A stretch of DNA of 64,000 bases, from the sequence record OQ850288. One strand, 5' to 3'. Shown here piece by piece: positions 13,011 to 36,670 of the stretch (position 1 is its first letter; each line of letters starts with the position of its first letter). The translations under genes were made by a program, and so were the position numbers. The notes under the pieces were generated by a model. The model made no database searches. It was given only the letters and a program-made list of their open reading frames with translations, and had not been told where the DNA came from. The DNA comes from Escherichia phage vB_EcoM_ULIM9.

Positions 13011-13502
13011 TTAGTTATGTCTTGCAAACTCACCATGAAGTTCTATTCGCTTTTTAATTACAGCTTCTTTTGCTTCTTCTACCGTTTTAAATCTTCCACA
13101 AAAGTATTCTTTATGGTAAAGCATGACTCTTGCTTTGTAAAGACCTGTTTGTTTACAAAAACTTACACCCTTCACACCAGTTTTATTATTCTTGTGTATA
13201 CCCCTATTCCTCTGATTTTGTGACTTTGTGCTAAGTCTTAAATTCTCCAGCTTATTATTAGCTTTATCAAGGTCTATGTGGTCTATCTCATATCCACTTG
13301 GTATCTCACCTCCAGACATAATCCATGCAATATTATGTGCATAGTACCTCTTCTTATTTATCTGGACTTGGATATAACCCTTCTTAGACCTTGTGCCAGC
13401 CACATTACCAGCAATAGCGGTACTGCAAAGGGTTACTCTCCAAATTAATAAACCTGTATCTGGTTCATATATTAGGTATTTTTCAAAATAACCCTTATTC
13501 AT
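13011..13502 (-). CDS. HNH homing endonuclease (paralog 1)
   Basis: YEPDTGLLIWR N-terminal motif and ELHGEFARHN C-terminus shared with the ORFs at 26050 and 36137; HxxxxDxxxxN-type core (EIDHIDLDKANN). Confidence 0.7.
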   Translation of the reverse strand: MNKGYFEKYLIYEPDTGLLIWRVTLCSTAIAGNVAGTRSKKGYIQVQINKKRYYAHNIAWIMSGGEIPSGYEIDHIDLDKANNKLENLRLSTKSQNQRNRGIHKNNKTGVKGVSFCKQTGLYKARVMLYHKEYFCGRFKTVEEAKEAVIKKRIELHGEFARHN

Positions 13503-13510
13503 ACTGTTAC

Positions 13511-14392
13511 CTAATCAATGTTTGCTACAGTAACTTGACTATAATGTGTTAAGCCACGGTCTTTAGCTTCCCCTAAAGAGTTTGTAGTGTAGATGTGGTC
13601 AATGCCATTGTCAAGAAGGTTTTCAACGCCTTTAGAGAAGATACCATGAGTCACATAGAGTTCCACACGTTTTGCACCTGCTTCACGAAGATGTTTAGCT
13701 GCTTCTATGAAGGTTCGACCGCCATCACAGATATCGTCGAGAATCATAACAGTTTTATCGTTCAAATCAACATCATCAAGGATTCGCATACCAGTAATTT
13801 CACCAGTCTTAAGGTTACGTACTTTAGACATTGTGATGTATGGTTTATCCACCTCTTTAGTAGTCTCTGCAATCTTCTTAGAAGCACCTGCATCTGGGGC
13901 TACTAAGTAATCAATCAGAGGGTCATTTGCGTAATGGACTGCAATCTCCTTTTGAGGAATACTCTGGAAGCAATTGAAAAGGTTATCTGGAACGTAACTA
14001 TGAGGGTCAACTGCACAGACTGCATCAAAACCCATTGCATTAACCTGTTGTGCAAACACTTTCAAAGCTGCTGCATCACCTTTAAACATGTGACGGTCGT
14101 AACGTGCATTTGGCAAATAGTAAAAGATAGCAGTCTTCATAGCAAACTTATGAGGTACTAAATCATCAATTGCCTCTTTAGCAAGTGCCACAGCAAATAA
14201 TGTGTCTTTGTCATAACCCTTTATAATCATAATCACGTTGTTGATGGATGATGCAGCATAAGCAGTAAAATCAACAAACTCTGGTGAAAAATGTCCACCA
14301 ATCTCACCAGAAGGAAATTGTACGATGTTAAACTCTTCTTCGTGAGTCCCTTTAGTTGGTGAATGAACTGTAACACGGATAGATGTTTTCAT
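13511..14392 (-). CDS. prs: ribose-phosphate pyrophosphokinase-family protein (Prs-like; candidate ADP-ribose pyrophosphokinase)
   Basis: PRPP-binding loop VMILDDICDGGRTF and DPHS motif; start trimmed to ATG 14392 (track start 14407 is a TTG). Confidence 0.8.
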   Translation of the reverse strand: MKTSIRVTVHSPTKGTHEEEFNIVQFPSGEIGGHFSPEFVDFTAYAASSINNVIMIIKGYDKDTLFAVALAKEAIDDLVPHKFAMKTAIFYYLPNARYDRHMFKGDAAALKVFAQQVNAMGFDAVCAVDPHSYVPDNLFNCFQSIPQKEIAVHYANDPLIDYLVAPDAGASKKIAETTKEVDKPYITMSKVRNLKTGEITGMRILDDVDLNDKTVMILDDICDGGRTFIEAAKHLREAGAKRVELYVTHGIFSKGVENLLDNGIDHIYTTNSLGEAKDRGLTHYSQVTVANID

Positions 14393-14403
14393 AGTTTTGT
14401 CTC

Positions 14404-14682
14404 TCAATCAAAGGTTACGTTTGTTACTGCCATTGCAGATTTGCATTTTACAGGGTCTACAACGTGGTAAAGTACACTACAGTTGCCTGTGCTGTCTGGT
14501 ACAGGTTTTACCCATTGATGCTTTATAGTTGGCTCTCCTAAGTCTTTGTAAGAACCATCTGTAAAGTTGTTTACCATCTCAAGTGCAATTGGTTCTGGAA
14601 CATGACCACGTATCATGTACATTTCACAACCATTACCACCTTCACTGACTAATGGTAAAATTTCCCACTTCTCTTTAGCCAT
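14404..14682 (-). CDS. hypothetical protein
   Basis: 92-aa ORF between the 171-aa ORF and the Prs-like gene, no intervening terminator. Confidence 0.4.
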   Translation of the reverse strand: MAKEKWEILPLVSEGGNGCEMYMIRGHVPEPIALEMVNNFTDGSYKDLGEPTIKHQWVKPVPDSTGNCSVLYHVVDPVKCKSAMAVTNVTFD

Positions 14683-15190: not shown

Positions 15191-15200
15191 ATCATCTCCA

Positions 15201-15229
15201 AAATAAAAAGGGAACCTTTACAGTTCCCT
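15201..15229 (-). terminator. intrinsic terminator
   Basis: plus-strand aaaaAGGGAACctttacaGTTCCCTT; minus-strand hairpin followed by UUUUUAUUUU. Confidence 0.55.
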
Positions 15230-15241
15230 TATAGTATCTGC

Positions 15242-15562
15242 TTACTGAGCTACTTTCAAGATTCTTGTGAATGGAATTTCACTTTCTTCCATTAACTCTT
15301 TAGTTTCTTTGGTAACTTTCACAAAGTTATCTAGGCAGATAATCTTCTTATCTTTCTTACTATAGGTTAATTTAACCTTTTCAATATCTTTCTCAGAGCT
15401 TTTCTCTTCATTGAAGAGTTTTACAGCCTCTTTGAATGGGAGATATGAGCCATCATTATCGCTAATGAATCCTGTACCACAATAGTAGGAGTTATGCTCT
15501 CTAGCCATAAACTGGCACAGTAAGAAAATCTGTAATTTACGAGTGTTATAAACTTTGCTCAT
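15242..15562 (-). CDS. hypothetical protein
   Basis: 106-aa ORF. Confidence 0.4.
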   Translation of the reverse strand: MSKVYNTRKLQIFLLCQFMAREHNSYYCGTGFISDNDGSYLPFKEAVKLFNEEKSSEKDIEKVKLTYSKKDKKIICLDNFVKVTKETKELMEESEIPFTRILKVAQ

Positions 15563-15564
15563 GA

Positions 15565-15831
15565 TTATTTAGCCTTCTTATTACGTTTACGGTTACGAGC
15601 TTTCTTAGCTGCTCGTTTAATAGCTGCTGCACCAGACGGACGGTGGGCTTGTTTCTTACCACCTTTGCCACGGCCTACATAGATGTAAGGCTGCTGTTCA
15701 ATTTGGCTTGTAAGAACCTGTGCAACCGCTGAAGCATCTACACCGACCTGCTTTCCAGTCATAGAAACAATTGCTGCTGCTTTTGCCAGTGCCTTCAAGA
15801 AGCCAGCTTTCATATCACCTAAAATTCCCAT
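15565..15831 (-). CDS. hypothetical protein with highly basic C-terminus
   Basis: 88 aa ending KRAAKKARNRKRNKKAK. Confidence 0.4.
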   Translation of the reverse strand: MGILGDMKAGFLKALAKAAAIVSMTGKQVGVDASAVAQVLTSQIEQQPYIYVGRGKGGKKQAHRPSGAAAIKRAAKKARNRKRNKKAK

Positions 15832-15846
15832 TTTTAGTCTCTCTCA

Positions 15847-16122
15847 TTAAAGTTTAATACAGAACTTATGAAGTTCTTCTTCAGTGATACCTATTGGAGT
15901 GATACCTTCTCTGATATTTTGAATCCTGTAGAAGTCTCCAAACTTATCTGATTCATGAATGACAAACGTGACATTCTTTACAATCGTTGCAAGAGCACAT
16001 AATGAACGTGAACCAAATTTTTCTCTCGTATAAATCATCCAAGCATCTAACTTGTTGATGTCGTAAGTCCACTTACCAGAATAATCATTCTGCTCGCCAT
16101 TGACAATCACCTTGCCATCCAT
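15847..16122 (-). CDS. hypothetical protein (start uncertain)
   Basis: track ORF 15847..16203 overlaps the nrdG 3' end; internal ATG at 16122 has a GGAG RBS. Confidence 0.3.
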   Translation of the reverse strand: MDGKVIVNGEQNDYSGKWTYDINKLDAWMIYTREKFGSRSLCALATIVKNVTFVIHESDKFGDFYRIQNIREGITPIGITEEELHKFCIKL

Positions 16123-16570: not shown

Positions 16571-16579
16571 CTAGTTACC

Positions 16580-16879
16580 TCACCAATACATATAAGTGCT
16601 CTGAGCAGCTTTCTTTGGAGACTTACTATCAATGTCAAAGTCTTCATCTAAGTAGGATGTCTTAGAAAGCTGCCTTATTTGTGTTCTTGTAAGACGTTTA
16701 GTAGCCTTCTTAATCTCTCTACAAGGCTGGCTTGTAAAGTCATAAGAGCCTCCTTTTCTGGACATCATATCAGAATGGAAGTAGACATCTGAAGCATTTT
16801 CTCTGTTACGTACCTCATTTCTCCACTCATAGAGTCCATGAACGTTCTTCAAACCTTTTCTTCGAATTGTTTTACTCAT
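16580..16879 (-). CDS. hypothetical protein
   Basis: 99-aa ORF. Confidence 0.4.
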   Translation of the reverse strand: MSKTIRRKGLKNVHGLYEWRNEVRNRENASDVYFHSDMMSRKGGSYDFTSQPCREIKKATKRLTRTQIRQLSKTSYLDEDFDIDSKSPKKAAQSTYMYW

Positions 16880-17468: not shown

Positions 17469-17573
17469 TTTAACTTATCTCTCAATTCACAATAAGAGAG
17501 TCCTAAAAAGAACCCTAGTAAGACAGAACCTATGAACAACCCAATAATACTCTCTGCCATATCTAACATCCAA

Positions 17574-17613: not shown

Positions 17614-17622
17614 TGTCAAGTT

Positions 17623-19767: not shown

Positions 19768-19786
19768 TATTGCCCCTTTACATGTT

Positions 19787-19807: not shown

Positions 19808-19815
19808 CTTTCATT

Positions 19816-24581: not shown

Positions 24582-25308
24582 CCCCTTTTAACCAGCACTT
24601 CAGGTTATTAGCATCATAATTCAGTTTCGGGTATGAGGTTACATGGAACTGCTCACCATCATAATAGACAATATCTGCAATCCATAGTCCATTCTCTTTA
24701 CAGAAGTCTTTATCTGCTTTAGAGGTAATTGGATTAACTTCTACAAAACCATCTACACCCAAATCCTTTAAGCTACCTACAATACCTTTGCAGATAACGC
24801 ATGTCTCAGATACTACCACAAAAAGTTCTTGGCTTTCAAGTTCTACAATGTATTCGCCAAGCTGTACTTTAGGGAGGTTCGATTGCTTCATAACCTTTCC
24901 ATCGGCTGCACGAACAATCGCATACCATTCTTTACCATCAACTACTGACATTCTGATAATACACTCTTGACCAGTGCGCTTTTCAATGTCTGCAAGACGT
25001 TTTAAAGCTTCTTCATAGTCATCTGTGTACTTCAGGTCATTATTATGGCAAACAGCTTTCATAGCACCGTTATGGTCATGCTGTGACAGGTAAATCAAAC
25101 CATCAAGAACATATTGCAAATCTGCCTGAGCATCCAGTGTCTCAATGGGGTCTTTCTCTTCAATTGCTTTTACAAGCTCTTTTGCTTCTTCAAGCATACA
25201 CAGAGACTGGGATTTTAAAGACTCCCAATACTCATCACTGTAAGGTTGCTTTTGAGTGTTTCCACAACGAAGATTCCAGTTTTTTACTGCTTCTCTTGAG
25301 TTAAACAT
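24553..25308 (-). CDS. MazG-like nucleotide pyrophosphohydrolase domain protein (tentative) with C-terminal extension
   Basis: LEEAKELVKAIEEKDPIETLDAQADLQYVLDGL resembles the EExxE...D..D helical core of MazG-type NTP-PPases. Confidence 0.35.
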   Translation of the reverse strand: MFNSREAVKNWNLRCGNTQKQPYSDEYWESLKSQSLCMLEEAKELVKAIEEKDPIETLDAQADLQYVLDGLIYLSQHDHNGAMKAVCHNNDLKYTDDYEEALKRLADIEKRTGQECIIRMSVVDGKEWYAIVRAADGKVMKQSNLPKVQLGEYIVELESQELFVVVSETCVICKGIVGSLKDLGVDGFVEVNPITSKADKDFCKENGLWIADIVYYDGEQFHVTSYPKLNYDANNLKCWLKGVGYNGFTEH

Positions 25309-25546
25309 TTGGACTCCTTAAAAATCTGTTAACCTTTAGCTCTCGTGTTTCAATATATTCCAGATGCTCACGTAACTCTTGACGTTTAAGCATTAGGTGT
25401 TGCATTTGAGATTCAACAGCTTCAACTTCTTTAATTATTGACTCTCTGGCATTTGCAAGAATGCGCTCAAGTTCTTCAATCTTGCTGTCAACCTTTGCTA
25501 CATGACTCACAGCTTTACTTTTGTTAAACATTTTATTCTCTCTCAA
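25301..25546 (-). CDS. hypothetical coiled-coil protein
   Basis: 81 aa, heptad-like charged helix. Confidence 0.35.
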   Translation of the reverse strand: MRENKMFNKSKAVSHVAKVDSKIEELERILANARESIIKEVEAVESQMQHLMLKRQELREHLEYIETRELKVNRFLRSPNV

Positions 25547-25552
25547 TAGTTA

Positions 25553-26053
25553 TCAAGCACAATTCGCTTTCATTACCTTATGGATTCTTTTTTCAGCATC
25601 TTCATAAGTTTCTTTAGTAATAAACTTAATTGCTGCAATATTGGCATTGTAGAAGAGTCTGAGCTTAGAGTCAATCCTTTTTGTCATTACATCGAATTTA
25701 TGTTGGAGGTTTGCTTCACCATAAACTAGACCACCTTTCGTGTAGTAGGTTTGTATAATGTAAAAGTCAAAAAATTCTTTTCCAAAGCTCTCAATATCCT
25801 TTTTAATATACTCAGAAGAAGTCTCATAAGTCATCCAATCACTTTCCTTAGTGACTATCTTCTTCCGAGTCTTCCCAGCAACTTTTCTTTTAGTAACACT
25901 GTTAAACTGTTTCTTACCCAAATAATACTGTCCAGTCTTTTTGCAGTACACTAGGTAGACAAAACCAAAGTGCTTTGCTGGGTCAACTTCACCACATAGT
26001 GAAATCCAATGTCCATATTCAGGGCAATTGCCAAAACCTTTTATTTTTCTCAT
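25553..26053 (-). CDS. putative GIY-YIG homing endonuclease
   Basis: GFVYLVYCKKTGQYYLGKK resembles the GIY-x(10)-YIG motif. Confidence 0.4.
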   Translation of the reverse strand: MRKIKGFGNCPEYGHWISLCGEVDPAKHFGFVYLVYCKKTGQYYLGKKQFNSVTKRKVAGKTRKKIVTKESDWMTYETSSEYIKKDIESFGKEFFDFYIIQTYYTKGGLVYGEANLQHKFDVMTKRIDSKLRLFYNANIAAIKFITKETYEDAEKRIHKVMKANCA

Positions 26054-26565
26054 TCATCACCTTTATTAGCAAACTCTTTGTGTAAACGTTGACGTTCCCT
26101 ATTTACAACCTCTGCTGCTTCAGCAATCGTGTCATAGTTGCCGAAGAAGTAAACCCTCTTCTTAAAAGTTATCTGTGTAGCCCACTTACCATACTGTTTA
26201 TTGTAGTACACACCTTTAACACCTGATTTATTGTTCTTATTGAGCAATCTATTACATTGGTTCTCTGATAACGTACATGCTCTAAGATTTACCCAGCGAT
26301 TATCTAATGTTACATGATTTTTATGGTCAACACACTCAGGGAGGTAACCATCCATATACAGAACAGCTAGTGTATGTGCATAATAACCCTTACCAAACAA
26401 ATAAATTCTGATGTAACCTTTTAAGTTTGTACCTGCAACAGAGCCAATTTTTGTGTGTCTAGCAGACTTCTTAATCCAAGTAAAGACCCCTGTTTCGGGG
26501 TCATAGTGCAGGTATTCTTTAAGAGTTTGTTGGGTTAACATTTGGTGTCCATCCATACTTGTCAA
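26050..26565 (-). CDS. HNH homing endonuclease (paralog 2)
   Basis: YDPETGVFTWIKK and LHKEFA shared with paralogs; about 30 nt of the 5' region identical to the copy at 36137. Confidence 0.7.
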   Translation of the reverse strand: MTSMDGHQMLTQQTLKEYLHYDPETGVFTWIKKSARHTKIGSVAGTNLKGYIRIYLFGKGYYAHTLAVLYMDGYLPECVDHKNHVTLDNRWVNLRACTLSENQCNRLLNKNNKSGVKGVYYNKQYGKWATQITFKKRVYFFGNYDTIAEAAEVVNRERQRLHKEFANKGDE

Positions 26566-27565
26566 AAGTGAAATCGTCTTTCTTGTTTCTTTCCTGATAA
26601 GCTAAGAAAAAGTGTTGCTGCATTAACTCTAAAGGTGTTCTGGTAATTGTTTGACCATCCCATGATACATAAGTGTATGACTCTTTCTTAGCATAAAGTT
26701 CATAGATAGCATCAAGACACTCTTTATAAGTATTTTTACCTTCAAGGGCTTTCATTACAGTAGCCTTACCAACGCCCTTTAAACCAAAATAATTATCAGC
26801 ATTGTCACCAGCCACAGCTTGATAACAAAGGAATTTAAAACCTACACCAACTGTCTTCTTAGCTTTTGGTGTTGATTTTATTGGGCAATCCCAAATTTCA
26901 CCTACGTTGTTGTCAGCAATGAAAATCAAAGGCGACTTTTCATAGGTCATATCAATGCAGTAAGTCCCTTCAGCTTGGCGAAGGTCTTTATCAATACTCA
27001 TCAAGGCAGCCTTTTTACCCATCTTTTCAGCTTTAGCAATAACGATAGAATCGGCTTCAAATCCATCAAGAATTAGTTTGAACTCTGGTCTTGACAGAAG
27101 GTATTCACGACAAGCGACTAAGTGTGTTGGTGTGACGGCATCTTTACGGTTACCTTGATATTGGTGCTCAAGACCTTTAATGTCTTTATGCTTATGTACA
27201 CCTTTCTCTGTTAAATAACCTACCCAAGTTCTCTCTTTACCAACCACCTTAAGCCATTCCTGAAGAACCTGTTGAGTAGCCATGATAGCTTCTTTTTCAC
27301 TCTTAGCTTCTTTCCAAGTCTGTCTTTCCCATTCATCTTCATCAAATGTCAGGCCAAGTTCTTCCACAAGGATTCTCTGGTCTGCTAACCATCTTGCAGC
27401 ATCTTTCGCATTATCAAATGGCTCAGACTCTTCTGCTGTGAGTTTATTGACATATTTATATTTTGCTTTCTCAACTACACAAGCCCCTTTATAGGCAATA
27501 CTATCAGAGTCAATAAAGACATGTGTAACTGAATCGGGAAGCTTTGTTAATGTGTACTTCTCCAT
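26519..27565 (-). CDS. 5'-3' exonuclease / flap endonuclease (FEN/RNase H family)
   Basis: N-terminal acidic cluster VFIDSDSIAYKGA and downstream EADSIVIA...SIDKDLRQ typical of FEN-family nucleases. Confidence 0.65.
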   Translation of the reverse strand: MEKYTLTKLPDSVTHVFIDSDSIAYKGACVVEKAKYKYVNKLTAEESEPFDNAKDAARWLADQRILVEELGLTFDEDEWERQTWKEAKSEKEAIMATQQVLQEWLKVVGKERTWVGYLTEKGVHKHKDIKGLEHQYQGNRKDAVTPTHLVACREYLLSRPEFKLILDGFEADSIVIAKAEKMGKKAALMSIDKDLRQAEGTYCIDMTYEKSPLIFIADNNVGEIWDCPIKSTPKAKKTVGVGFKFLCYQAVAGDNADNYFGLKGVGKATVMKALEGKNTYKECLDAIYELYAKKESYTYVSWDGQTITRTPLELMQQHFFLAYQERNKKDDFTFDKYGWTPNVNPTNS

Positions 27566-27579
27566 TATGGCTCTCCATA

Positions 27580-27610
27580 TGAAAAAGCCCCATACTAAGT
27601 ACAGGGCTTT
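27580..27610 (-). terminator. intrinsic terminator
   Basis: plus-strand gaaaaAGCCCcatactaagtacaGGGCTtt 3' of the SSB-like gene. Confidence 0.45.
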
Positions 27611-27627
27611 AAAGTAACTTTTAGAGA

Positions 27628-28485
27628 TTAATCTTCTGTATCGAAGTCTTCATCTTCTTCGTCATCTGGGTCTGGCAAGTCTTCATCATCGCCATCATCA
27701 GAATTATTCGAAGGTTTGTGGTCTGTTGCGTCTTCTTCAGTGATTTCACCGTTATCTTCAACACCATCAAGACCAAGCATAGCCAGTTCGTCTTCATCCA
27801 GTTCAGGTTCACCATTAGCACCGTTACCACCAGTGTAAGGTACAAGAGTATCAATGATAAACTGTTCCTGAATAGGTTTTGTCAGAACATTGTTCTCAAA
27901 AGTGTAGAAGTGAGTAGAAAGAATCACACTACCAAAAGAACCGTTACCAACTGCAATATCTGGATGAATTACATCATAGTTCTTGTCATCTTCATGTTTA
28001 TCAGATGCTTGAGCTTTGATTTTCTTCATTGGCTGCTTAACAGCTACACGCTTACCATTTACTTCTTCAATCAGCATTACAGGGAATGACTGTTTAGCTG
28101 TCCATACAGCACCATCCTTATAAGCTGCTGCACGACTTACTTTCAAGATGTAGTAAGTGTCTGCTTCAAATGGTGGTTTGCAGCCAAACTTCTCTTCGAA
28201 GTCATCTGCATCAACTGCTTCAGTAGTAACTTTATCCCACCCTTCTGGATTTTTCTTAGACTTAGTAAACTCTTTAAAGAGCTTGTTACCGTCTTCTGCC
28301 AGAATTGATACGCTGTAGTTACAGTCTTTTCCTGGGAATTTCTTATCAATTGATTTACCTTTTCCCGGACGTGGTGAAGTGTTCAGGTAATAAAACCAGA
28401 CATCTTTCAGCAGGTAACGCAGAGTTTGACGTTCAGTACCGTTGTACTTCTCTACCGGAGCTTTCATTTTAACAACTTTAGACAT
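27628..28485 (-). CDS. putative single-stranded DNA-binding protein with acidic C-terminal tail
   Basis: 285 aa; C-terminus DDGDDEDLPDPDDEEDEDFDTED; sits in the replication module. Confidence 0.5.
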   Translation of the reverse strand: MSKVVKMKAPVEKYNGTERQTLRYLLKDVWFYYLNTSPRPGKGKSIDKKFPGKDCNYSVSILAEDGNKLFKEFTKSKKNPEGWDKVTTEAVDADDFEEKFGCKPPFEADTYYILKVSRAAAYKDGAVWTAKQSFPVMLIEEVNGKRVAVKQPMKKIKAQASDKHEDDKNYDVIHPDIAVGNGSFGSVILSTHFYTFENNVLTKPIQEQFIIDTLVPYTGGNGANGEPELDEDELAMLGLDGVEDNGEITEEDATDHKPSNNSDDGDDEDLPDPDDEEDEDFDTED

Positions 28486-28521
28486 TATTTAAACCTCTAT
28501 CTCAATTTATGAAGAGTACCA

Positions 28522-28550
28522 ATTCTAATTTGTTGATACTCTATTGTCAA
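28522..28550 (-). promoter_or_regulatory. sigma70-like promoter TTGACA-17-TAGAAT
   Basis: minus strand reads TTGACAatagagtatcaacaaatTAGAAT about 35 nt upstream of the SSB-like start. Confidence 0.55.
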
Positions 28551-28703
28551 ACATTAATTACTGGAAGTTGTGCTTATCTTTAGAAGCTGCTTTACGTGCA
28601 GTTTTTCCAGTTCTTACACGTTTTTCTTCATAGTATTTTGCTGGTTTTCCAGCAGTGGCTTTTAAGGAATCCCCAAAAACTTTTTCAAATGCTTTAGAGT
28701 GTT

Positions 28704-28997
28704 TCATGATATTCTCCGATATACTTGATATTCAAACACATTTTCTTTCATTATAAACAGCCAACCAATATTATGCTGAGGCAGTGTAATGATGACTGTA
28801 ATCATACTTTGATGGAACTGTTGTTCTATTTCAACTTCTCCATCGCATTTCATGTGGAGCATTCTATAGAACCTATCAATCTTTGTCAAACACTCTTCAT
28901 GAAATTTATTTAAACTTTTTTCTTCAAATAAGGGTGTGAACCCCTCTCTTTTATAGCTATCACTCAGTTTCGAACGGGCAGTCATCTGCATCCTCAC
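28704..28997 (-). CDS. hypothetical protein
   Basis: 97-aa ORF; stop overlaps (ATGA) an unannotated 55-aa basic ORF running to about 28540. Confidence 0.35.
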   Translation of the reverse strand: MRMQMTARSKLSDSYKREGFTPLFEEKSLNKFHEECLTKIDRFYRMLHMKCDGEVEIEQQFHQSMITVIITLPQHNIGWLFIMKENVFEYQVYRRIS

Positions 28998-30945
28998 TTA
29001 ATACAGGTGGAATCGTTGAGCTTTGACGCTGCTCTTCAGTATAGACTTCACCAGTCTCACGGTCAAACACTTCATCCTCATAATGTGGCAAAGAGTCATC
29101 GTAATGGTCTTCAGCTTCACCAATACCAAACTGTTGGCGAATATTTTCTGCTGCACCATCAATGTCAACTCCACAACCAGAGGCTTTAATGAGACGTCCT
29201 GTATCTGGATTGTACCAAGTATGACCAGCAATACCTGTTGACTTACCGTGACGACGGCATTTAGTTAACTTGATTTTTGTCAAGTTTTTCTTAACAGGGT
29301 CTGGGTCAACCTTGTTACGCATTAACAGAATGTTGTTCATAGAAATCTGGAAATACGCACCAGAACCTTTAATATCCTCTTCAGAGATATCTCCACCTTC
29401 GGAGTTAGCCTTCTGACCACCTGCACTCTTACGAACGTGACAGACGTTCACCTGTGCATACTGGTAGCGTTTGCAACGACGCAATAGCTCAGACAAAACT
29501 TCTTCTTCATCCGTATCAGAACGTGACAGGGCTAACGTGATAGGGTCAAGAATGATAATCTTACAGTCTAAACTGTTAACAAGATAGTCAACAAACTCTA
29601 GCAGGTTATCTTGGTCAATTGCCCCTTGATGGTCTACGATGTGGATACGACGACCTTTAGACAGTTCTGCGTGTGCTTCCTTCAATTCATCCCAATCACG
29701 TTCGTCATAAGGAATCTCAGAAATCTGCTTGCTCAGGTGGATTGCACAAAGCATCTCCATCAACTCTTCATAGGTATCTTCTACAGGAATTACACCAATA
29801 TTGTAATCGGTATCTTTCCAAGCAGTATAAATCATTTCACGAGTGTATGCAGATTTACCCACTGAAGATGGTGCTGCCAGAGTTGTAATCTCACCTAAAC
29901 CGTAACCACCATAAGTCAGTCTGTTCAAATCCCCGAAAGATTCTGGGAAAGGAATCAATGGAATCTGACCACGATTCTTCATTGCCTCAAAACCATCTGC
30001 GAAGTTCTTGATACCAGCAGGACAGTAACGAGGTGCATTGTAGATACGCTGCTTAAACCCCTCCAGAACTGTATCTTTCTCTTTATAGAACTTTGTCCAC
30101 CACTCGTTAAGGTCTTTTACACCTTCTGGATACTGGAATAAACGAACCTTCTCAATAGGTAGGATACCAGCAGCCTCTTTAGTGGCTTTAGCACCTGCTT
30201 CATCGTTATCAAAGCACAAGTAAATCTCATCAAATGATGTAATGTACTGATAGTTATCCTTGATAGACTTGATGTTTGCACCTGATGGAACAGATACGTG
30301 ACAGTAATTCTTACGACGAGACTTATCTTTAATCGCAAGAGAAGTCATATAGATTGCTGTCGCACATTCCATCTCACCTTCCCAGATGAATAGACGGTTA
30401 CCACCTTCTGGAGCAATCCATGAACCGAACATTGCCAGTTCGCCTTTAATGTCTCCAACACCACCTGAGAAGTCTTTTAGCTTACCTCGTAGGTGTTCTT
30501 TTGGATGGTCTTCTGGATAGCGATGACGTACACGGTAGCCAACGTGCTCTAGCTTACCATCTTCATTACGTTTGTAAGTTGGATAGAAATGCGCATCAAT
30601 TTCACCGTCACTGTCAATGTCAACCTTGATACCCAATCGCTCAAGAACTTTTGCAGGAATCTTCCTGTCTTTTAAGTCCATTGCTTCAAGGTTTTCTTTT
30701 ACATCGTCTAAATCCATTCCACGGAAAGTACGGTTTTTATTGTCTGAACCAGTAGAATAAGTGCTCACGATTTGTCCTTTATCAAAATCCCACTCTGGGA
30801 AACCTTTGTTACAACTAAAGCAAGTCATTGAATAAGAATCATCGTCATGATGATAGATTGAACCAGCATCTGATGAACCACAACGTGGACATGCGCAATG
30901 ACCAACAAACTGACCAGCCTCTTTCAATTTACGACCTTTAGACAT
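28960..30945 (-). CDS. DNA primase-helicase (zinc-ribbon primase plus DnaB-like helicase)
   Basis: N-terminal CACPRCGS...CFSCNKGF zinc ribbon; Walker A GLGEITTLAAPSSVGKSA; start set to ATG 30945 with GAAGAGGTG RBS (track start 30951 is GTG). Confidence 0.85.
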   Translation of the reverse strand: MSKGRKLKEAGQFVGHCACPRCGSSDAGSIYHHDDDSYSMTCFSCNKGFPEWDFDKGQIVSTYSTGSDNKNRTFRGMDLDDVKENLEAMDLKDRKIPAKVLERLGIKVDIDSDGEIDAHFYPTYKRNEDGKLEHVGYRVRHRYPEDHPKEHLRGKLKDFSGGVGDIKGELAMFGSWIAPEGGNRLFIWEGEMECATAIYMTSLAIKDKSRRKNYCHVSVPSGANIKSIKDNYQYITSFDEIYLCFDNDEAGAKATKEAAGILPIEKVRLFQYPEGVKDLNEWWTKFYKEKDTVLEGFKQRIYNAPRYCPAGIKNFADGFEAMKNRGQIPLIPFPESFGDLNRLTYGGYGLGEITTLAAPSSVGKSAYTREMIYTAWKDTDYNIGVIPVEDTYEELMEMLCAIHLSKQISEIPYDERDWDELKEAHAELSKGRRIHIVDHQGAIDQDNLLEFVDYLVNSLDCKIIILDPITLALSRSDTDEEEVLSELLRRCKRYQYAQVNVCHVRKSAGGQKANSEGGDISEEDIKGSGAYFQISMNNILLMRNKVDPDPVKKNLTKIKLTKCRRHGKSTGIAGHTWYNPDTGRLIKASGCGVDIDGAAENIRQQFGIGEAEDHYDDSLPHYEDEVFDRETGEVYTEEQRQSSTIPPVLSEDADDCPFETE

Positions 30946-31138
30946 TAGCACCTCTTCGTTGTAGTTCTGCCTTCAATCCGTTTTCAATCTTGTCCAGTTC
31001 ATGAATTTCATCTGCAATCTCTTTCCTTCGTGATTCAACTCTCTTAAGACGTTCAATCATTACCTCATTGGAAAGAGATGAGAGTTCCACTAAACGGTGG
31101 TCAATAACTTTAAAATTGTCTTTTACTCTCATCTTCAT
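30938..31138 (-). CDS. hypothetical coiled-coil protein
   Basis: 66-aa ORF. Confidence 0.35.
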   Translation of the reverse strand: MKMRVKDNFKVIDHRLVELSSLSNEVMIERLKRVESRRKEIADEIHELDKIENGLKAELQRRGANV

Positions 31139-31146
31139 TCTCTCTT

Positions 31147-31890
31147 TTAAACTTTAATGATGGCTCTTAGCTTGTTCTCAAGGTCTGCAAGAGTACCATT
31201 ATTATGAATAATGTCACGCTCATATTTTGTAGAAATCCCATTTTCTGAAACATGTGATGAAACTTTGTCCACATTGTCTCTTTTTACTTCAATAGTTTGG
31301 TGTGCAAATCTACTCAGCCATTCAGCTTCAGAGTCAAATCTTAAATCACTGATTAAGACAAAACCATATTGATTTCTGAGTGAGCACATTTCATGGAATC
31401 TAACCATTCTTTTTTCAAGGTCTTTAGACCAGAACTTGTCGCCCATAACTTTACGGATAACTTCAGTACCCCAAATCTGTTGAATTTGTCTTGATGAGAA
31501 TTTATACTTTTTGCTAAACCCCAGACGTGTCAATAGAGTCGGTTTAGCAACCTTCTTAAGCTCCATGATTAATCGTCCGGTTAACTCTGACATAAGCTTG
31601 AAGTCCATATGGTAACGTTCATCTCTGAAGGTGAACTCCATAGCTTCCGTAACTTTAAACATCAGTTCAGGATATGATAAGTCAAAAACCTGCGGAGCCT
31701 CTTTAGTTTCACCGTACAGGTCATTCCAAGTCAAGTCAAATATCTTTGATGCAGATAGTTTAAGGTTGTCTGCAAAGGCCATTACTTCAACATTGTAGCC
31801 ATACTCATCCTCTAAGATGTTCTTCACAATAGAACATGAGGTGTCTTTTCCAGAACGTGCCTTTCCAGTAAATGCGATAATATTACTCAT
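31147..31890 (-). CDS. P-loop nucleotide kinase (dNMP kinase-like)
   Basis: N-terminal IAFTGKARSGKDT Walker A; 247 aa. Confidence 0.5.
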   Translation of the reverse strand: MSNIIAFTGKARSGKDTSCSIVKNILEDEYGYNVEVMAFADNLKLSASKIFDLTWNDLYGETKEAPQVFDLSYPELMFKVTEAMEFTFRDERYHMDFKLMSELTGRLIMELKKVAKPTLLTRLGFSKKYKFSSRQIQQIWGTEVIRKVMGDKFWSKDLEKRMVRFHEMCSLRNQYGFVLISDLRFDSEAEWLSRFAHQTIEVKRDNVDKVSSHVSENGISTKYERDIIHNNGTLADLENKLRAIIKV

Positions 31891-31907
31891 TTTATCTCCC
31901 TTAATTA

Positions 31908-31933
31908 CTAAAAAGCCCCCAACTAAGGAGGCT
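31908..31933 (-). terminator. intrinsic terminator (imperfect stem)
   Basis: plus-strand aaaaAGCCCCCaactaaGGAGGCTT. Confidence 0.4.
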
Positions 31934-31951
31934 TGTAAGATTTATAAAGAC

Positions 31952-32752
31952 TTAGTGCAGTTGCTCAGCATACTCTTTTTCAGCCATAGCTGAGATTTGC
32001 TTCACAAAATCATCACCGAAGTTAATGCGTAGTTTCTCTTCAATGATGGAAGCACCAATGTTCACCAAAACATCATTGATTGCTTGCATACTGACGCCAC
32101 CAGTCATCTCTTCAATGAACTCAATACTCACACCCATCATCTGTGAAAGTTGGATTAGTGCAACGATATTCATCATCGTAGAGATAGCTGGAATCATCAG
32201 TGCAACTTTCACCTGAAGCGGTTCTATATCAGCTACAGAGTCATTCTCAACAGCTTCTTCCAAAGACTCTTTAGTTTGCTGGATAATCTCCTTGATTCGT
32301 GGGTTTAGTTCTTCTACACCCCAATCAAGTTTTTCATATCGTGACAACTTCTCTTCCATTCGCTTCTCAAGAGCAGCCATAACAGAACTGGTTGATGAAA
32401 TTAACAGGTCAATTAGCTCATCATTACCTGCGAGTAGTAGCAAGTCTTTTTCTTCAGTGGTCATGGCAATATAGTCATTTTTCTGCATCTCATAAAAAAT
32501 GAACTCTGCAAGAGCATCAACACCTACAACGATAGATGCTAAAGCAAGTGTTTTGTCGCAAAGCATCATGTTAACCTGTTCTGCAAAAGCACCGTTATCA
32601 GACTTGTCTTCAGGCAAGTTATAGCTTGAAGGCATAAACTGTTCTGTGTAGTTGTTGCCACGAAGAATCATAGCCATGCTTTCTACGGCATTGATTAAGA
32701 ATGCTTCATCAACACCTTTCTCTTCAAGCATCTTTTCTACATCGATATTCAT
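31952..32752 (-). CDS. hypothetical acidic protein
   Basis: 266-aa ORF. Confidence 0.4.
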   Translation of the reverse strand: MNIDVEKMLEEKGVDEAFLINAVESMAMILRGNNYTEQFMPSSYNLPEDKSDNGAFAEQVNMMLCDKTLALASIVVGVDALAEFIFYEMQKNDYIAMTTEEKDLLLLAGNDELIDLLISSTSSVMAALEKRMEEKLSRYEKLDWGVEELNPRIKEIIQQTKESLEEAVENDSVADIEPLQVKVALMIPAISTMMNIVALIQLSQMMGVSIEFIEEMTGGVSMQAINDVLVNIGASIIEEKLRINFGDDFVKQISAMAEKEYAEQLH

Positions 32753-32753
32753 A

Positions 32754-33176
32754 TTATTTCTCTCTCAGTTGGTTAAGTTTCTTTCTAGAACATTTTAAGT
32801 TTTCAGATGAAGAAAAGTCAAGTGTCTTTTCAGAACGTGGATAATAGTGCCTATCCCAAGAAGTTTCAACATCGTTAATCAGTGACGCTAGATTACACAG
32901 GTCTGTACCACTTTGCAACTTCTTTTTAAGAGAATCTAGTAAAGCAACTGTGTCTTTAGCTTTACGTCTCGCTGTAGCAACATCTTTCATATGCTCAAAT
33001 ACAGAGCATTTTAAGTCATCTTCATAGTTTTCAGACAACTCTATTTCATGTTGTATATCAACCATTCTCCTGTGATGGTGAGCATATTCCCGTTGAGCAG
33101 CAATGTCAAGTTCTTCCAACTTCTGCAAAGCTCTAACAAAGTCAGCTATGTCTGGGTGAACAAACATTTTCTGCAT
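32754..33176 (-). CDS. hypothetical protein
   Basis: 140-aa ORF; first gene of the leftward unit diverging from the polymerase gene. Confidence 0.4.
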   Translation of the reverse strand: MQKMFVHPDIADFVRALQKLEELDIAAQREYAHHHRRMVDIQHEIELSENYEDDLKCSVFEHMKDVATARRKAKDTVALLDSLKKKLQSGTDLCNLASLINDVETSWDRHYYPRSEKTLDFSSSENLKCSRKKLNQLREK

Positions 33177-33433
33177 GTAAGCCTCTTTTAAGTAACTATT
33201 AAGTTTTAATCTTTTATCTTAACGTATTCTATACGTTATACTTTAAAGCTTTTTAAAAGCTATTAAATAATCTTTTAAGAGTTTTAAAGTATCTGTATAG
33301 TTAAACTGTTAAGTAACCTTTTAAGTAAAAACCCACTTCGCAAAGATTAACACCTTGTCAAGTACATTGTCAACTTGCTTTTTATAATTTTTTGCAGTAA
33401 TGTATGAGGTTAATGATTTTAGAGGGAGTAAAA
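33177..33433. promoter_or_regulatory. AT-rich divergent intergenic region with repeated CTTTTAAG motifs
   Basis: ORF-free stretch between the divergent genes 32754..33176 (-) and DNA polymerase (+); TATAAT at 33383-33388. Confidence 0.4.
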
Positions 33434-36133
33434 ATGGAAAACGTAGATTTTAAGAACTTACATTTAGTTGGTGATACAGAAACTGATGGTTTACTCCTTG
33501 AGTTCACTAAAGTTCACGTAATGGCTTTTGCAGACTATAAATCTGACGATGAAGAGCCACCTGTATGGGTCTTCACAGATGAGCCTATCCTCGGTCACAA
33601 GTACACTAAGTACATTAAGGGTGGTTTACGTGAAGGTGTTGAGTTTGCGTTAAAGGCAAAACGACTTTGTATCCATAATGGTCTCGGTTATGACTGGTGG
33701 GTTTTCAATCACATTGCACCGGATTTATGGAACTTTGATAATCCAAAATGTAAGCCGTGGAGTAATTTCTTTCAGGACTCTCTTATCCAGTCTCGTGTTC
33801 AGTGGATGGATAGACCAACTCCAAAGGGTTATAAAGGTGCTCATGGTTTGGCTGCATGGGGTGCTCGTGTTGGTGTTCGTAAGCCAGAGATTGAGCATTG
33901 GGGTGTGTGGAATGCAGAAATCTTCACTCGTGTTGTAGAAGATATTCGTATTAACGCCAAAACTAAACGGGCACTTGATAATGAGTATCTCAAGCTTAAG
34001 AAGTGTGGCATAGACACTTATGAAACCTACATGCGAGCTAAAGAAACATCTTTCTGGATGAGTCAACAAGCTATCAATGGCTGGAAAGCTGATAAAGAGC
34101 TTATGGAGTTCCATGTAAAGGAACTTGACAAGTTGACTAATGAGCTTGCTTCAGAGGTTGAACCACATCTACCACCAACTATTAAGACCAAAGGTAAAGT
34201 CACTGGAGAAGAGTTTGCAAAAGCTTGGAATGAGTATGTTGAAACATTTGGTCATGCAGATGGACTGAAAAGAATTACCAAGTACCCTAAGACAAAGTAT
34301 CGTCAGCAGGTACGTAATGGTGAGATGCAGACATATGAAATCAAGCCATTTGGTAAGCCAACTACAAAGATTTTTAACATTGAAAAGAGAAATTGCTATA
34401 CACCAACCAACTCTGTAACTGGTGAAGAGTACAAGGAAGGCTTTGTAGCAATGAAGGATGCTCGTGCAATTTGCAATGAGTTGAATGCAAAGATTGGTAA
34501 GAAATGCAAAGACTGGAAGCCAGTAAAAACAGTCAAAACTGTGAAGTACTATAACAGCCACGTTGTTAACCACTTTGAGCTTGAGTCAAGTCGCTACACA
34601 GGTTTGATTGATGCACCATATACACCAATTGAGTTTGAAGTTTCTCGTATGACTCAGGTAGCAGTTGTTAAAGACTACTTGAAATCAGTTGGTTGGATTC
34701 CAGATGACTGGAACTACAAGAAAGACTCAGACGGTCGCCCTATCAAAGTTTGTCGTTTCAAAGACAATAAAAAGATGATTACAAAACATCCTAAGTGGCA
34801 GGAAATGGTTGAGCGGTGCGGTTTGAGCTATGTTGAGCATGAAGGTGTACAGTACATTGAGCATAACTGGTCTGTTAAGAAGTACACAGACTTACTTGAA
34901 CCTTGTCTGATTAGGACTTCACCAAAACTTACTGAATCATCTTATGATACGATTGAAGGTGAGCTTGGACAGAAGATTGCTAAGTACTATACTTTGATGC
35001 ACCGACGCAGAACTATTGAGAACTCAAAGGATGATGAAAAAGGTTGGTTGAACCAGATTCGTCCTGATGGTCGCCTTAGTGCTGGTGCAATGGTGTTTGG
35101 TACTTCAACTGGACGTATGACACAATATGGTATTGTAAACGTACCGTCTGGTGCTGCTGTCTATGGAGCACCTATGAGGGCAGTGTGGATTTGTGAAGAG
35201 GGGACTAACATTGTTTCTGTTGACCAGAACTCAGCCCAGCTAGTTCTTCTTTGTAACTTTATGGGTGATGAAGACTTCACTAAAGCGGTAACTGAGGGTA
35301 AAGAGTCAGTAGAATTTACCAAGCAAGAAGATGGGAGATATTATTGCAAACATCTTGATAAGTACCTTAATCCAGAAACTGATAAGTATCTTCGTTATGA
35401 TGCTGAGAATGACCTCTATGAAGTCTACACAGGTACTGATGCACATACACTGAATAGTATTTACTTTGGTCTGAACAAGGAAGAAGACATTGTTCGTTGT
35501 AGGGAGACACAGGATGAGGAACTTCTCCACGAGATTACAAAAGGTCGTAAGAAGAGCAAAAATGGCATCTACGCCCTGTTATTTGGAGCCGGAGACGAGA
35601 AGTTTGCAAAAACTATCAAGGCATCATCTACGGAAGAAGGTGCATTGACTAAACAAACTTACTATATGCGTCTGCCAAAGATTAAGAAGTTGCTTGATAG
35701 CTTAGAAGCCGATTTTAAGGCGTCTAAAAAGGCTCTGGAAGAGGTTTTTGGGAAGAATTCTTCAATTGCTAAAGGTGGTTATATCAGGGTCGCTGGAGCA
35801 TGGATATGGTGCAAATCTCCACATAAACTACTGAACTACCTCCTGATGAGTTCGGAAGCACAGATTCAGAATGAGGCCATCAACCTAGCAGCAAGAAAAG
35901 CCTGTGAAGATGGCCTGACAAAACTGAATGCTCGAAAACCAGCTATCGGAGCAAGGTTACTTCTGGCATATCACGATGAAAATAGTTGGGAATGCCCAGA
36001 GGGTATGACACATGATATGAAAGCAATTGCTGACTGGATGTATGGACAAGCTTCAAAAAACTTAGGTTTGAGGAAAGAAACACTTGTAACTGGTACAGCA
36101 AAGGTTGGTAAGAGCTGGTTGGAGGTACATTGA
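33434..36133 (+). CDS. DNA polymerase with N-terminal 3'-5' exonuclease domain
   Basis: about 900 aa; Exo I-like LVGDTETDGL near the N-terminus; start set to ATG 33434 with GGGAG RBS. Confidence 0.8.
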   Translation: MENVDFKNLHLVGDTETDGLLLEFTKVHVMAFADYKSDDEEPPVWVFTDEPILGHKYTKYIKGGLREGVEFALKAKRLCIHNGLGYDWWVFNHIAPDLWNFDNPKCKPWSNFFQDSLIQSRVQWMDRPTPKGYKGAHGLAAWGARVGVRKPEIEHWGVWNAEIFTRVVEDIRINAKTKRALDNEYLKLKKCGIDTYETYMRAKETSFWMSQQAINGWKADKELMEFHVKELDKLTNELASEVEPHLPPTIKTKGKVTGEEFAKAWNEYVETFGHADGLKRITKYPKTKYRQQVRNGEMQTYEIKPFGKPTTKIFNIEKRNCYTPTNSVTGEEYKEGFVAMKDARAICNELNAKIGKKCKDWKPVKTVKTVKYYNSHVVNHFELESSRYTGLIDAPYTPIEFEVSRMTQVAVVKDYLKSVGWIPDDWNYKKDSDGRPIKVCRFKDNKKMITKHPKWQEMVERCGLSYVEHEGVQYIEHNWSVKKYTDLLEPCLIRTSPKLTESSYDTIEGELGQKIAKYYTLMHRRRTIENSKDDEKGWLNQIRPDGRLSAGAMVFGTSTGRMTQYGIVNVPSGAAVYGAPMRAVWICEEGTNIVSVDQNSAQLVLLCNFMGDEDFTKAVTEGKESVEFTKQEDGRYYCKHLDKYLNPETDKYLRYDAENDLYEVYTGTDAHTLNSIYFGLNKEEDIVRCRETQDEELLHEITKGRKKSKNGIYALLFGAGDEKFAKTIKASSTEEGALTKQTYYMRLPKIKKLLDSLEADFKASKKALEEVFGKNSSIAKGGYIRVAGAWIWCKSPHKLLNYLLMSSEAQIQNEAINLAARKACEDGLTKLNARKPAIGARLLLAYHDENSWECPEGMTHDMKAIADWMYGQASKNLGLRKETLVTGTAKVGKSWLEVH

Positions 36134-36136
36134 TTA

Positions 36137-36670
36137 ATGGATTTAATTTTACAAAAACGTTTAAAGGAGCTGCTGCACTATGACCCCGAAACAGGGGTCT
36201 TTACTTGGCTTCGTAGAGAAGGTAAATCAAGAGCTGTTAGTGTTTTTAACAGTAATTATGCAGGAAAGGTGGCAGGTAATATCCAGACTGATTCAAGTGG
36301 TCATAAACAGATTAGTATCTATTTTGACAAGAAAGCACATAAAGCACACAGGCTCGCATGGCTTTACGTGTATGGCAAGATGCCAAAAGGTATCATTGAC
36401 CATATCAACGGAGACTCGCTTGACAACAGGATTGTAAACTTAAGGGAAGCAGATGATTTTCAAAGTGCTTGGAATAAAGGTAAACCAGTCACCAATAAAT
36501 CTGGGTACAAGGGTGTAAGTCTTAAGAAGAAGTCTGGTAAGTGGGTCGCACAGATAAGTTATAAAGGTAAGAAGATGTTTTTAGGTCACCATGACACACC
36601 AGAAGAAGCCCATAAAGCTTACTGTGAAGCTGCTATTAAACTCCACGGAGAGTTTGCAAAACTAAGTTGA
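36137..36670 (+). CDS. HNH homing endonuclease (paralog 3)
   Basis: YDPETGVFTWLRR, IIDHINGDSLDNR and LHGEFAKLS shared with paralogs. Confidence 0.7.
   Translation: MDLILQKRLKELLHYDPETGVFTWLRREGKSRAVSVFNSNYAGKVAGNIQTDSSGHKQISIYFDKKAHKAHRLAWLYVYGKMPKGIIDHINGDSLDNRIVNLREADDFQSAWNKGKPVTNKSGYKGVSLKKKSGKWVAQISYKGKKMFLGHHDTPEEAHKAYCEAAIKLHGEFAKLS

Follow-up and report, generated by a model that had tools for sequence, protein, structure and literature searches.

Salmonella phage Felix O1 carries six HNH endonuclease genes (Whichard et al. 2010, PMC3185647), and its HNH-AP2 endonucleases have been cited as prokaryotic relatives of AP2 proteins (PMC4237383). HNH homing genes are thus already known in this group, the Felix O1 HNH-AP2 endonucleases having been published in 2004 and 2010. 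A further precedent is mobE of phage T4, which promotes the homing of its DNA flanks as well as of an intron close by (PMC2790892). Gene 3.8 and gene 5.3 of T7/T3-like phages (the latter following the DNA polymerase) are, like mobE, small HNH ORFs lying beside polymerase or nucleotide-metabolism genes, and the Felix O1 record itself compares ORF218 and ORF305 to T7 gene 3.8. Bonocora and Shub, in 2009, reportedly linked gene 5.3 to an intron insertion site. I-HmuI of Bacillus phage SPO1 (1U3E), an HNH homing endonuclease, is an intron-encoded nicking enzyme with a helix-turn-helix C-terminal domain instead of AP2.

Here we analyse a stretch of 64,000 nucleotides (the window) from Escherichia phage vB_EcoM_ULIM9, a Felixounavirus (Felix O1-like myovirus) with approximately 95% identity to many sequenced phages. 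The 24.7-kb region of interest is matched by 278 phage records, 205 of which cover at least 80% of it at approximately 90-95% identity. We are fairly confident in the following overall reading: three free-standing HNH-AP2 genes occupy short intergenic slots next to strongly conserved genes in Felixounavirus genomes, most likely through intronless homing, and a GIY-YIG gene beside one of them is fixed and probably domesticated.

HNH-AP2 genes and their neighbours

The initial annotation placed three HNH endonuclease ORFs between Prs-like and Nampt-like genes, next to a flap endonuclease and directly after the DNA polymerase, with a GIY-YIG-like ORF adjacent to the second. All four ORFs were recovered in the ORF list, with their translations, exactly where it had put them, and the gene coordinates confirm the neighbours:

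11215-12996: Nampt gene, start at 12996
13011-13502, minus strand: HNH1, 163 aa, HNH_3 and AP2, between the Nampt start and the prs stop (site 1)
13511-14407: prs (Prs), stop at 13511
25553-26053, minus strand: GIY-YIG (SegE-type) nuclease-domain gene, 166 aa, Pfam SegE_GIY-YIG E 3.6e-27
26050-26565, minus strand: HNH2, HNH_3 and AP2, mechanical ORF start TTG 26565 (site 2)
26519-27565: 5'-3' exonuclease, stop at 26519-26521
33404-36133: family A DNA polymerase
35200-36133, plus strand: hypervariable 3' end of the polymerase gene, beside HNH3, 60-80% identity to dune, wV8 and FelixO1
36137-36670, plus strand: HNH3, 177 aa, HNH_3 and AP2 above cut-offs, 3 nt past the polymerase stop (site 3)

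HNH1, HNH2 and HNH3 all matched Pfam HNH_3 (PF13392; E 5.5e-19, 1.5e-11 and 9e-15) with scores of 68, 44 and 54.5 bits, above the cut-off of 24.8. Matches to AP2 were also obtained (E 4.9e-4, 2.3e-4 and 1.4e-12); HNH3 exceeds the AP2 cut-off of 33.3 with 48.1 bits, while HNH1 (20.8) and HNH2 (21.8) score below it and align with HNH3 over their full length. In addition, phrog_99 ('HNH endonuclease') was matched by each of them, with E-values between 1e-68 and 1e-72. Pfam, phrog_99 and alignment thus place the three ORFs in the HNH-AP2 homing endonuclease family, which is widespread in phages; they had been proposed to be HNH homing endonucleases. Searching NCBIfam returned zero matches for all four proteins, and neither tblastn nor a motif scan found further HNH copies in the window.

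A profile built from the three proteins matched I-HmuI weakly at the HNH motif (E 1e-3) and plant AP2 domains at the C-terminus (7WQ5, E 1e-5). In the resulting layout, the N-terminal region bears the conserved LHYDPETGVFTW-type motif, the centre is an HNH nuclease motif (I-HmuI-like, beta-beta-alpha-metal) and the C-terminus is an AP2 DNA-binding domain. Both terminal motifs had been described as shared and need correction: copy 1 has YEPDTGLLIW, not YDPETG, and the C-terminal motif takes the forms ELHGEFA, RLHKEFA and KLHGEFA. The I-HmuI catalytic residues are an Asp-His pair (D74, H75), a structural asparagine within NLR (N87) and a metal-binding asparagine (N96), a numbering consistent with the profile alignment obtained here. 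All catalytic residues are present in HNH1 (DH...NLR...SQN) and HNH2 (DH...NLR...SEN). HNH3 keeps DH and NLR and has FQS, placing a serine at the I-HmuI metal-ligand Asn96 position, and this serine is conserved within the HNH3 subfamily. From these residues, HNH3 may be catalytically impaired or serve solely to bind DNA, although the protein is conserved.

The copies had been called paralogous, a term that holds at the level of the family and not beyond it. Pairwise identity among the three is 36-41%, whereas each copy reaches 44-50% with homologues in unrelated viral contigs, and a recent intragenomic duplication was rejected for this reason.

The HNH genes are free-standing, as had been claimed: each is an ORF of its own between genes, and Rfam detected no group I intron in the window. 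Since the same search detects introns in the relative REP8, an intron or intein context for the HNH genes was rejected. In relatives such as REP8, HNH3 is accompanied by an intron that lacks an ORF and interrupts the polymerase gene; in relatives the intron is inserted around window position 35570. HNH2 likely starts at ATG 26541 (MLTQQ..., matching other alleles); its ORF overlaps the 3' end of the exonuclease gene and the start of the GIY-YIG gene (ATGA 26050-26053). More generally, the HNH insertions start and stop in intergenic sequence or gene ends, the ORFs either fitting between neighbouring stop and start codons or overlapping them by a few nucleotides.

Occupancy of the three sites and the adjoining GIY-YIG gene

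Among close relatives, all three HNH slots were found filled, empty or occupied by another allele, which agrees with the proposal that these genes are mobile. Of 239 records, 61 have site 1 filled and the remainder carry a 32-bp spacer; in REP8 and wV8 this intergenic stretch, which contains a terminator-like hairpin, stands in place of window positions 13011-13512. At site 2 the allele of the window, with both flanks, is present in 27 of 244 records, and elsewhere there are two other alleles or no HNH gene. The two alternatives, one in dune and FelixO1 and one in wV8, replace 26058-26471; in REP8, 26042-26554 is missing and the C-terminal tail of the exonuclease differs. At site 3, between the DNA polymerase and downstream small genes, 52 of 233 records have the HNH3 allele or one close to it. 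The site is occupied by at least five allele clusters and is empty in wV8, Tribble and JH2. FelixO1 has a different allele there, of which the last ~80 nt and a hairpin stem (see below) alone match the window.

Sequence identity dips in the flanks of sites 1 and 2 when compared with relatives. At site 3 the dip extends over the polymerase 3' end, against a background of 94-99% identity to the same three phages. The flank upstream shows 97.8-99% identity in those Felixounavirus loci carrying the allele of the window (L101, L104 and L111) and 69-87% in most other loci. Polymerase 3'-end haplotypes largely go along with the allele downstream of them, though not always: L095 and L100 carry the same allele cluster with a flank of 74.5%, and L099 carries a different cluster with 99% over 190 nt. 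Ordinary mosaic recombination, instead of endonuclease-driven co-conversion, could account for this flank divergence. A candidate sigma-70 promoter over the HNH3 stop (TTGACA at 36667, TATACT) was dropped; its spacer is 22 nt and the promoter scan did not report it.

For pairs with measurable divergence, dN/dS was 0.08-0.18 for HNH1, 0.05-0.17 for HNH2, 0.08-0.24 for HNH3 and ~0.05 for the GIY-YIG gene, the lowest of the four (overall range 0.05-0.24, dS up to 0.58). Purifying selection acts on all four. Together, site polymorphism and purifying selection support reading the HNH genes as free-standing homing endonuclease genes. During mixed infection, an HNH enzyme would cut or nick the gene-less allele of a relative, its target lying within the conserved neighbouring gene or close to it. 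Repair by recombination, with the carrier genome as template, would then copy the endonuclease gene together with part of its flanks, and transfer would run in one direction.

Strong purifying selection is equally expected of a gene useful to the phage. The HNH genes might accordingly be kept for a benefit rather than by selfish spread, as weapons against the DNA of competing relatives or as DNA-binding regulators, and HNH3 especially could be a catalytically dead DNA-binding protein of AP2/HNH fold. Low dN/dS in all copies, the conserved serine at the metal-ligand position of HNH3, and the occupation of all three positions in FelixO1, dune and the window would fit such a role. However, each HNH gene is missing from many closely related viable phages, so none is required; several unrelated alleles at one site are a signature of repeated invasion, and a competitive benefit would in any case be compatible with homing. 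We regard retention for benefit as quite improbable. It is far less probable still that the HNH ORFs are decaying, now inactive remnants of old insertions. The life cycle of homing endonucleases predicts degeneration once a gene is fixed, and the serine-for-asparagine change in HNH3 might be seen in that light, but the frames are intact, the D-H and N-L-R motifs are retained by all three proteins, and every comparison combines synonymous divergence with low dN.

The GIY-YIG gene presents a different picture from the three HNH genes, having been grouped with them as a selfish mobile element. The GIY-YIG domain itself is real. It spans residues 22-139 of the 166-aa protein, with the catalytic tyrosines, basic residue, glutamate and asparagine all present and the catalytic-type residues invariant; a fold search identified the I-TevI catalytic domain as the closest fold, and a sequence search of the PDB gave zero matches. 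Mobility, by contrast, found no support. The gene occurs in 295 phage records (Erwinia phages included), compared with 276 that have the core exonuclease beside it, and no empty site was seen among the fetched relatives whose exonuclease-MazG region was examined. Lack of presence/absence polymorphism, named at the outset as a refutation of mobility, indicates that the gene is not behaving as a mobile element now. Additionally, the protein has no DNA-binding extension, and its homologues measure 132-169 aa, with 1 of 16 longer. We read it as a long-resident, probably domesticated nuclease whose gene is fixed in Ounavirinae.

Alternatively, the ORF could be an active free-standing homing endonuclease gene that swept to fixation. 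It adjoins an HNH insertion hot spot, it encodes a SegE-type domain with invariant catalytic-type residues and an I-TevI-like fold, and a distant homologue of 270 aa (P0016) is extended at its C-terminus by NPM(F/H)GK-like repeats that resemble the NUMOD3 modules of Seg enzymes. Against this, the gene occurs no less widely than the core exonuclease, its empty site was never seen, and it encodes a protein of just 166 aa, without the extension, that evolves at the dN/dS given above; we consider a sweep to fixation unlikely. Many records mislabel the gene as 'NAD synthetase'.

A hairpin within HNH2 and HNH3

Copies 2 and 3 had been said to share about 30 identical nucleotides. The shared run is real; its exact length is 36 nt, and the 27-mer originally quoted lies inside it:

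26476-26511, minus strand: 36-nt run, copy in HNH2, encoding LHYDPETGVFTW; hairpin at 26485-26502, 17 nt past the exonuclease stop
36173-36208, plus strand: 36-nt run, copy in HNH3; hairpin at 36182-36199, 49 nt past the polymerase stop

A set of 100 shuffles produced no match. Within the run, 11 of 11 degenerate codons are identical, compared with 38% at conserved residues elsewhere in HNH2 and HNH3 (P ~2e-5). The identity therefore exceeds both chance and amino-acid conservation. The run contains the hairpin GACCCC-GAAACA-GGGGTC (stem GACCCC-N6-GGGGTC), whose stem is made of codons that the phage almost never uses, with a joint expectation of 7e-5.

Across eight allele clusters with 34-73% amino-acid identity, this stem is unchanged at the two sites in Felixounavirus, Suspvirus and Mooglevirus, while the loop and adjoining codons vary among alleles. 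It is kept in all Ounavirinae alleles seen at site 3, including 16 of 16 loci found by C-terminal peptide alone, and is absent from all non-Ounavirinae homologues with a DP..G-type motif. A universal RNA element of the HNH family was rejected, since synonymous recoding revealed no extra hairpin stability outside Ounavirinae (mean z ~-0.4 even with Ounavirinae copies counted). As judged from the alleles compared, the hairpin element is lineage-specific. No compensatory stem changes were found across alleles, because the stem never varies. The HNH gene of Erwinia phage Rouille is uninformative for covariation, since it lies upstream of the polymerase and its product lacks the DP..GV motif.

The initial annotation had suggested that repeated segments could drive recombination. 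This was unsupported: the two copies lie in opposite orientation, separated by 9.7 kb, the 205 relatives covering at least 80% of the 24.7 kb are colinear, and no rearrangement between the copies was found. Recent gene conversion within the genome was also rejected as the origin of the identity. A leucine codon of the run (CTG or CTA) distinguishes the two sites in other genomes, in either direction, and there is consequently no sign of within-genome homogenisation. Each of the eight allele clusters is confined to one site.

We tentatively raise the possibility, without favouring it, that the run is a cis-acting element inside the coding sequence, namely the hairpin or palindrome, instead of a mere repeat. 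Situated just past the essential exonuclease and polymerase genes, the hairpin possibly acts as an intrinsic terminator or attenuator, or as a hairpin protecting the mRNA 3' end, in which case endonuclease expression would stay low. It could alternatively be a protein-binding site or a recombination joint for allele exchange. Were it functional, it would offer a small testable case of a free-standing endonuclease gene held at low expression or swapped as a cassette, leaving the essential upstream gene unharmed.

Relation to described systems

The small conserved hairpin in two HNH genes is the sole part of these findings that goes beyond the known features of the group, and their main value lies in annotation and housekeeping. 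The insertions explain the indels of ~0.5 kb and the locally divergent patches seen in Felixounavirus genomes beside prs/Nampt, the exonuclease and the polymerase. Phylogeny and typing should avoid these regions, above all the final ~900 bp of the polymerase gene, and the 'NAD synthetase' label should be treated as unsupported.

Among the closest described systems is Felix O1, a member of the same genus with HNH ORFs at the three corresponding positions, after prs, the exonuclease and the DNA polymerase; its six HNH genes include ORF305, ORF257 and ORF218. ORF305 has ~90% DNA identity to HNH1, whereas Felix O1 carries other alleles at sites 2 and 3, the match at site 2 comprising the 5' ~95 nt alone. 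The likeness to I-HmuI spans the catalytic core, through the HNH_3 motif DH...N...NLR...N, and HNH3 departs from it at the Asn96 position. As with T7/T3 genes 3.8 and 5.3 and mobE, the small HNH ORFs described here adjoin polymerase or nucleotide-metabolism genes, but they lie in a window without an intron. Finally, the GIY-YIG protein shares fold and motif with T4 SegE and the catalytic domain of I-TevI, but differs from the Seg enzymes and I-TevI in having neither a DNA-binding domain nor presence/absence polymorphism.

Three HNH-AP2 genes in a Felixounavirus genome

A search of the phage collection with the 24.7-kb region around the four endonuclease-like ORFs revealed 278 matching records, of which 205 covered at least 80% of the region at an identity of about 90-95%. 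Almost all belong to Felixounavirus, the Felix O1-like myoviruses infecting Escherichia, Salmonella and Shigella. Records labelled Campylobacter phage A126/A132 and Staphylococcus phage SA1 (H67, H114, H166, H192) also contain Felixounavirus sequence and are probably mixed or mislabelled assemblies. ORF calls, translations and domain matches confirmed the four ORFs as initially annotated, and the names given to the neighbouring genes proved right according to Pfam and the annotation of four relatives (dune, REP8, FelixO1 and wV8).

11215-12996 (-): Nampt
13011-13502 (-): HNH1, site 1
13511-14407 (-): Prs
25553-26053 (-): GIY-YIG ORF
26050-26565 (-): HNH2, site 2
26519-27565 (-): 5'-3' exonuclease
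33404-36133 (+): family A DNA polymerase
36137-36670 (+): HNH3, site 3
36398-36480 (+): HNH3 segment, residues ~88-115, with Ser for Asn96 in alignment to I-HmuI

In each HNH protein Pfam identifies an HNH_3 domain with an AP2 domain C-terminal to it, and each matches phrog_99 ('HNH endonuclease') over its full length; no fourth copy was found within the window. The shared motifs described initially required small corrections, copy 1 reading YEPDTGLLIW and copy 2 ending in RLHKEFA. Pairwise identity among the three is 36-41%. They belong to a very large family (HNH3 has matches at E 1e-15 or better in 1506 phage records, among them T5-like phages and numerous phages of Klebsiella, Vibrio and Salmonella), and each copy is closer to homologues on unrelated viral contigs (44-50%) than to its siblings. 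The term 'paralogous' thus holds insofar as the copies share a family, but recent duplication was rejected; they are separate lineages.

A profile built from the three proteins aligned over its HNH core with I-HmuI (1U3E) and over its C-terminal part with plant AP2 domains. In this alignment the Asp-His pair, the NLR Asn and the distal Asn are all retained in HNH1 and HNH2. At the distal metal-binding position (I-HmuI Asn96; FQS as against SQN or SEN), Ser occurs instead in HNH3 and its close relatives (alleles of the window, of dune, and of the SUSP and Sf13 types), yet this subfamily is conserved and under purifying selection, leaving its nuclease activity, and that of HNH3, uncertain. All three genes are under purifying selection (dN/dS 0.05-0.24 at dS up to 0.58), and are therefore not relics.

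Smaller differences were also observed. A small ORF (16580-16879; indel at 16596-16837; weak DUF5499 match) is missing in dune, REP8 and FelixO1, and another (36722-36931; indel at 36706-36927; without Pfam match) is missing in wV8. A 106-aa ORF at 15242-15562, which the wV8 and dune annotations call a 'putative HNH endonuclease', matched only DUF7390 in Pfam and contains no HNH motif.

Polymorphic HNH sites and a fixed GIY-YIG gene

The initial annotation regarded all four genes as selfish mobile elements and proposed presence/absence polymorphism as the check. Each HNH gene with its flanks was compared with the phage collection and the four relatives. At site 1, HNH1 is held by 61 of 239 records; in the remainder both flanks are joined across a span about 470 bp shorter, and in REP8 and wV8 the place of 13011-13512, between prs and Nampt, is taken by 32 bp with a terminator-like hairpin. 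At site 2, only 27 of 244 records carry the window's allele with both flanks. REP8-type genomes lack 26042-26554, whilst two other alleles of the same length, one in dune/FelixO1 and one in wV8, replace 26058-26471. At site 3, no gene follows the polymerase in wV8, Tribble and JH2, FelixO1 carries a different allele with only the last ~80 nt in common with the window, and at least five allele clusters (groups of related alleles) occur in IMG/VR. All three HNH genes are thus present, absent or replaced among relatives, supporting their interpretation as mobile endonucleases.

The last ~12 codons of the exonuclease (26519-26554) differ between genomes with and without the site-2 HNH gene, REP8-type genomes ending in a different 12-residue tail. 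The insertion thus has its boundary within the coding sequence of the exonuclease, which receives a new C-terminal tail from the cassette.

The GIY-YIG ORF encodes a genuine domain, as first proposed (SegE_GIY-YIG, E 3.6e-27), with Y33, Y44, G46, K47, K48, E113 and N136 invariant in 15 homologues. The protein is 166 aa in length (homologues 132-169 aa) and has no DNA-binding extension. Its gene is present in 295 records, Erwinia phages among them (the neighbouring exonuclease in 276), no empty site was found among the phage records and relatives compared, and dN/dS is about 0.05. The gene thus behaves as a fixed one, and its reading as a selfish mobile element is unsupported. The label 'NAD synthetase', given to it in phrog_447 and many GenBank records, found no support in any test run.

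HNH homing endonuclease genes of Felix O1-like phages are already known. Six, none inside introns or inteins, were described in Felix O1 in 2010 (PMC3185647), and its HNH-AP2 proteins have been cited as the relatives that plant AP2 domains have among prokaryotes (PMC4237383). Published accounts of the genus mention nrdD genes that are split and accompanied by an endonuclease, as well as an endonuclease content that varies (PMC4837284, PMC8300805). For large coliphages, homing endonuclease 'infestation' with associated gene conversion is treated as a routine matter (PMC8594841), and a survey exists of nuclease genes at the boundaries of exchange (PMC10448857). GenBank records already annotate the present ORFs as HNH or GIY-YIG homing endonucleases.

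A conserved hairpin in HNH2 and HNH3

The identical run shared by HNH2 and HNH3, first put at about 30 nt, is 36 nt in length (CTGCACTATGACCCCGAAACAGGGGTCTTTACTTGG) and contains a perfect hairpin, GACCCC-GAAACA-GGGGTC, in the N-terminal coding region of both genes.

26476-26511 (-) and 36173-36208 (+): 36-nt run (sequence comparison)
26485-26502 (-) and 36182-36199 (+): hairpin GACCCC-N6-GGGGTC

All 11 degenerate codons in the run are identical between the two genes, as against only 38% at conserved residues elsewhere (P about 2e-5), and amino-acid conservation was rejected as its cause. The suggestion that the repeat could drive recombination was not borne out by any evidence of repeat-driven rearrangement. 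Its two copies lie 9.7 kb apart in inverse orientation, and recombination between them would turn the replication block around. The 205 relatives are colinear across at least 80% of the region, and each of the eight allele clusters bearing the run is confined to one of the two sites.

The two hairpin copies are the top terminator-like hits within 25000-37500, and the stem dominates the predicted fold. Its four degenerate codons are rare in the phage (CCC, 2.5% of Pro; GGG, 7% of Gly; GTC, 11% of Val; joint expectation 7e-5), and only 0-0.3% of synonymous recodings fold equally well. An identical stem was found in 16 of 16 loci on Ounavirinae-sized contigs, these having been located through the C-terminal peptide alone, and eight divergent alleles across Ounavirinae share it without change. 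Variation is seen in the loop (GAAACA, GACAAA, GATACA, GAAATA), in the Tyr codon before the hairpin and in the codons after it. The stem is absent from every homologue with a DP..G-type motif in other phages, and the weak AU-rich stem that is all HNH1 has does not exceed expectation. Taken together, these results point to nucleotide-level constraint in the Ounavirinae lineage; a stem without variation permits no covariation test. The hairpin lies 17 nt (exonuclease) or 49 nt (polymerase) from the upstream stop, and possible roles include an attenuator or terminator, RNA 3' protection, a protein-binding palindrome or a recombination joint.

Flank divergence and the polymerase locus

Identity to relatives is 94-99% across most of the region, with dips beside sites 1 and 2, and falls to 60-80% against close relatives over the last ~900 bp of the polymerase gene (35200-36133). 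Haplotypes of this segment mostly match the downstream allele: Felixounavirus loci with the window's allele are 97.8-99% identical to it, versus 69-87% for most others. The exceptions are loci L095/L100, in the window's allele cluster at just 74.5%, and L099, in another cluster but 99% identical over 190 nt. Co-conversion around a homing site produces flanks of this kind; ordinary mosaicism is an alternative reading. Short patches of 58-82% identity at 15600-16100 and 32400-32600 adjoin no endonuclease gene.

Comparison with relatives shows the polymerase gene to be a hot spot for mobile elements. REP8 carries, alongside HNH3, a group I intron without an ORF at the position equivalent to window ~35570 (motif KNGIYA|LLFGAG), and a second intron in nrdD. 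Tribble and JH2 have an insertion with an Endonuclease_7-type ORF at the REP8 intron site and no post-polymerase HNH gene; in the window HNH3 is present and introns are absent. Immediately 3' of the intron site, eight codons in a row, all with synonymous differences, set the window and FelixO1 apart from dune, wV8 and REP8.

Introns and insertions in compared loci (polymerase site at window ~35569-35579):
L002, 23603-23886 and 6881-7255
L193, 545-1027
L194, 275-757

Gene 5.3 of T3-like phages provides one example of a free-standing endonuclease paired with an intron. The Felixounavirus polymerase locus, with HNH3 and, in relatives, an intron, likewise resembles the free-standing-endonuclease-plus-intron arrangement described for T4 mobE (PMC2790892).
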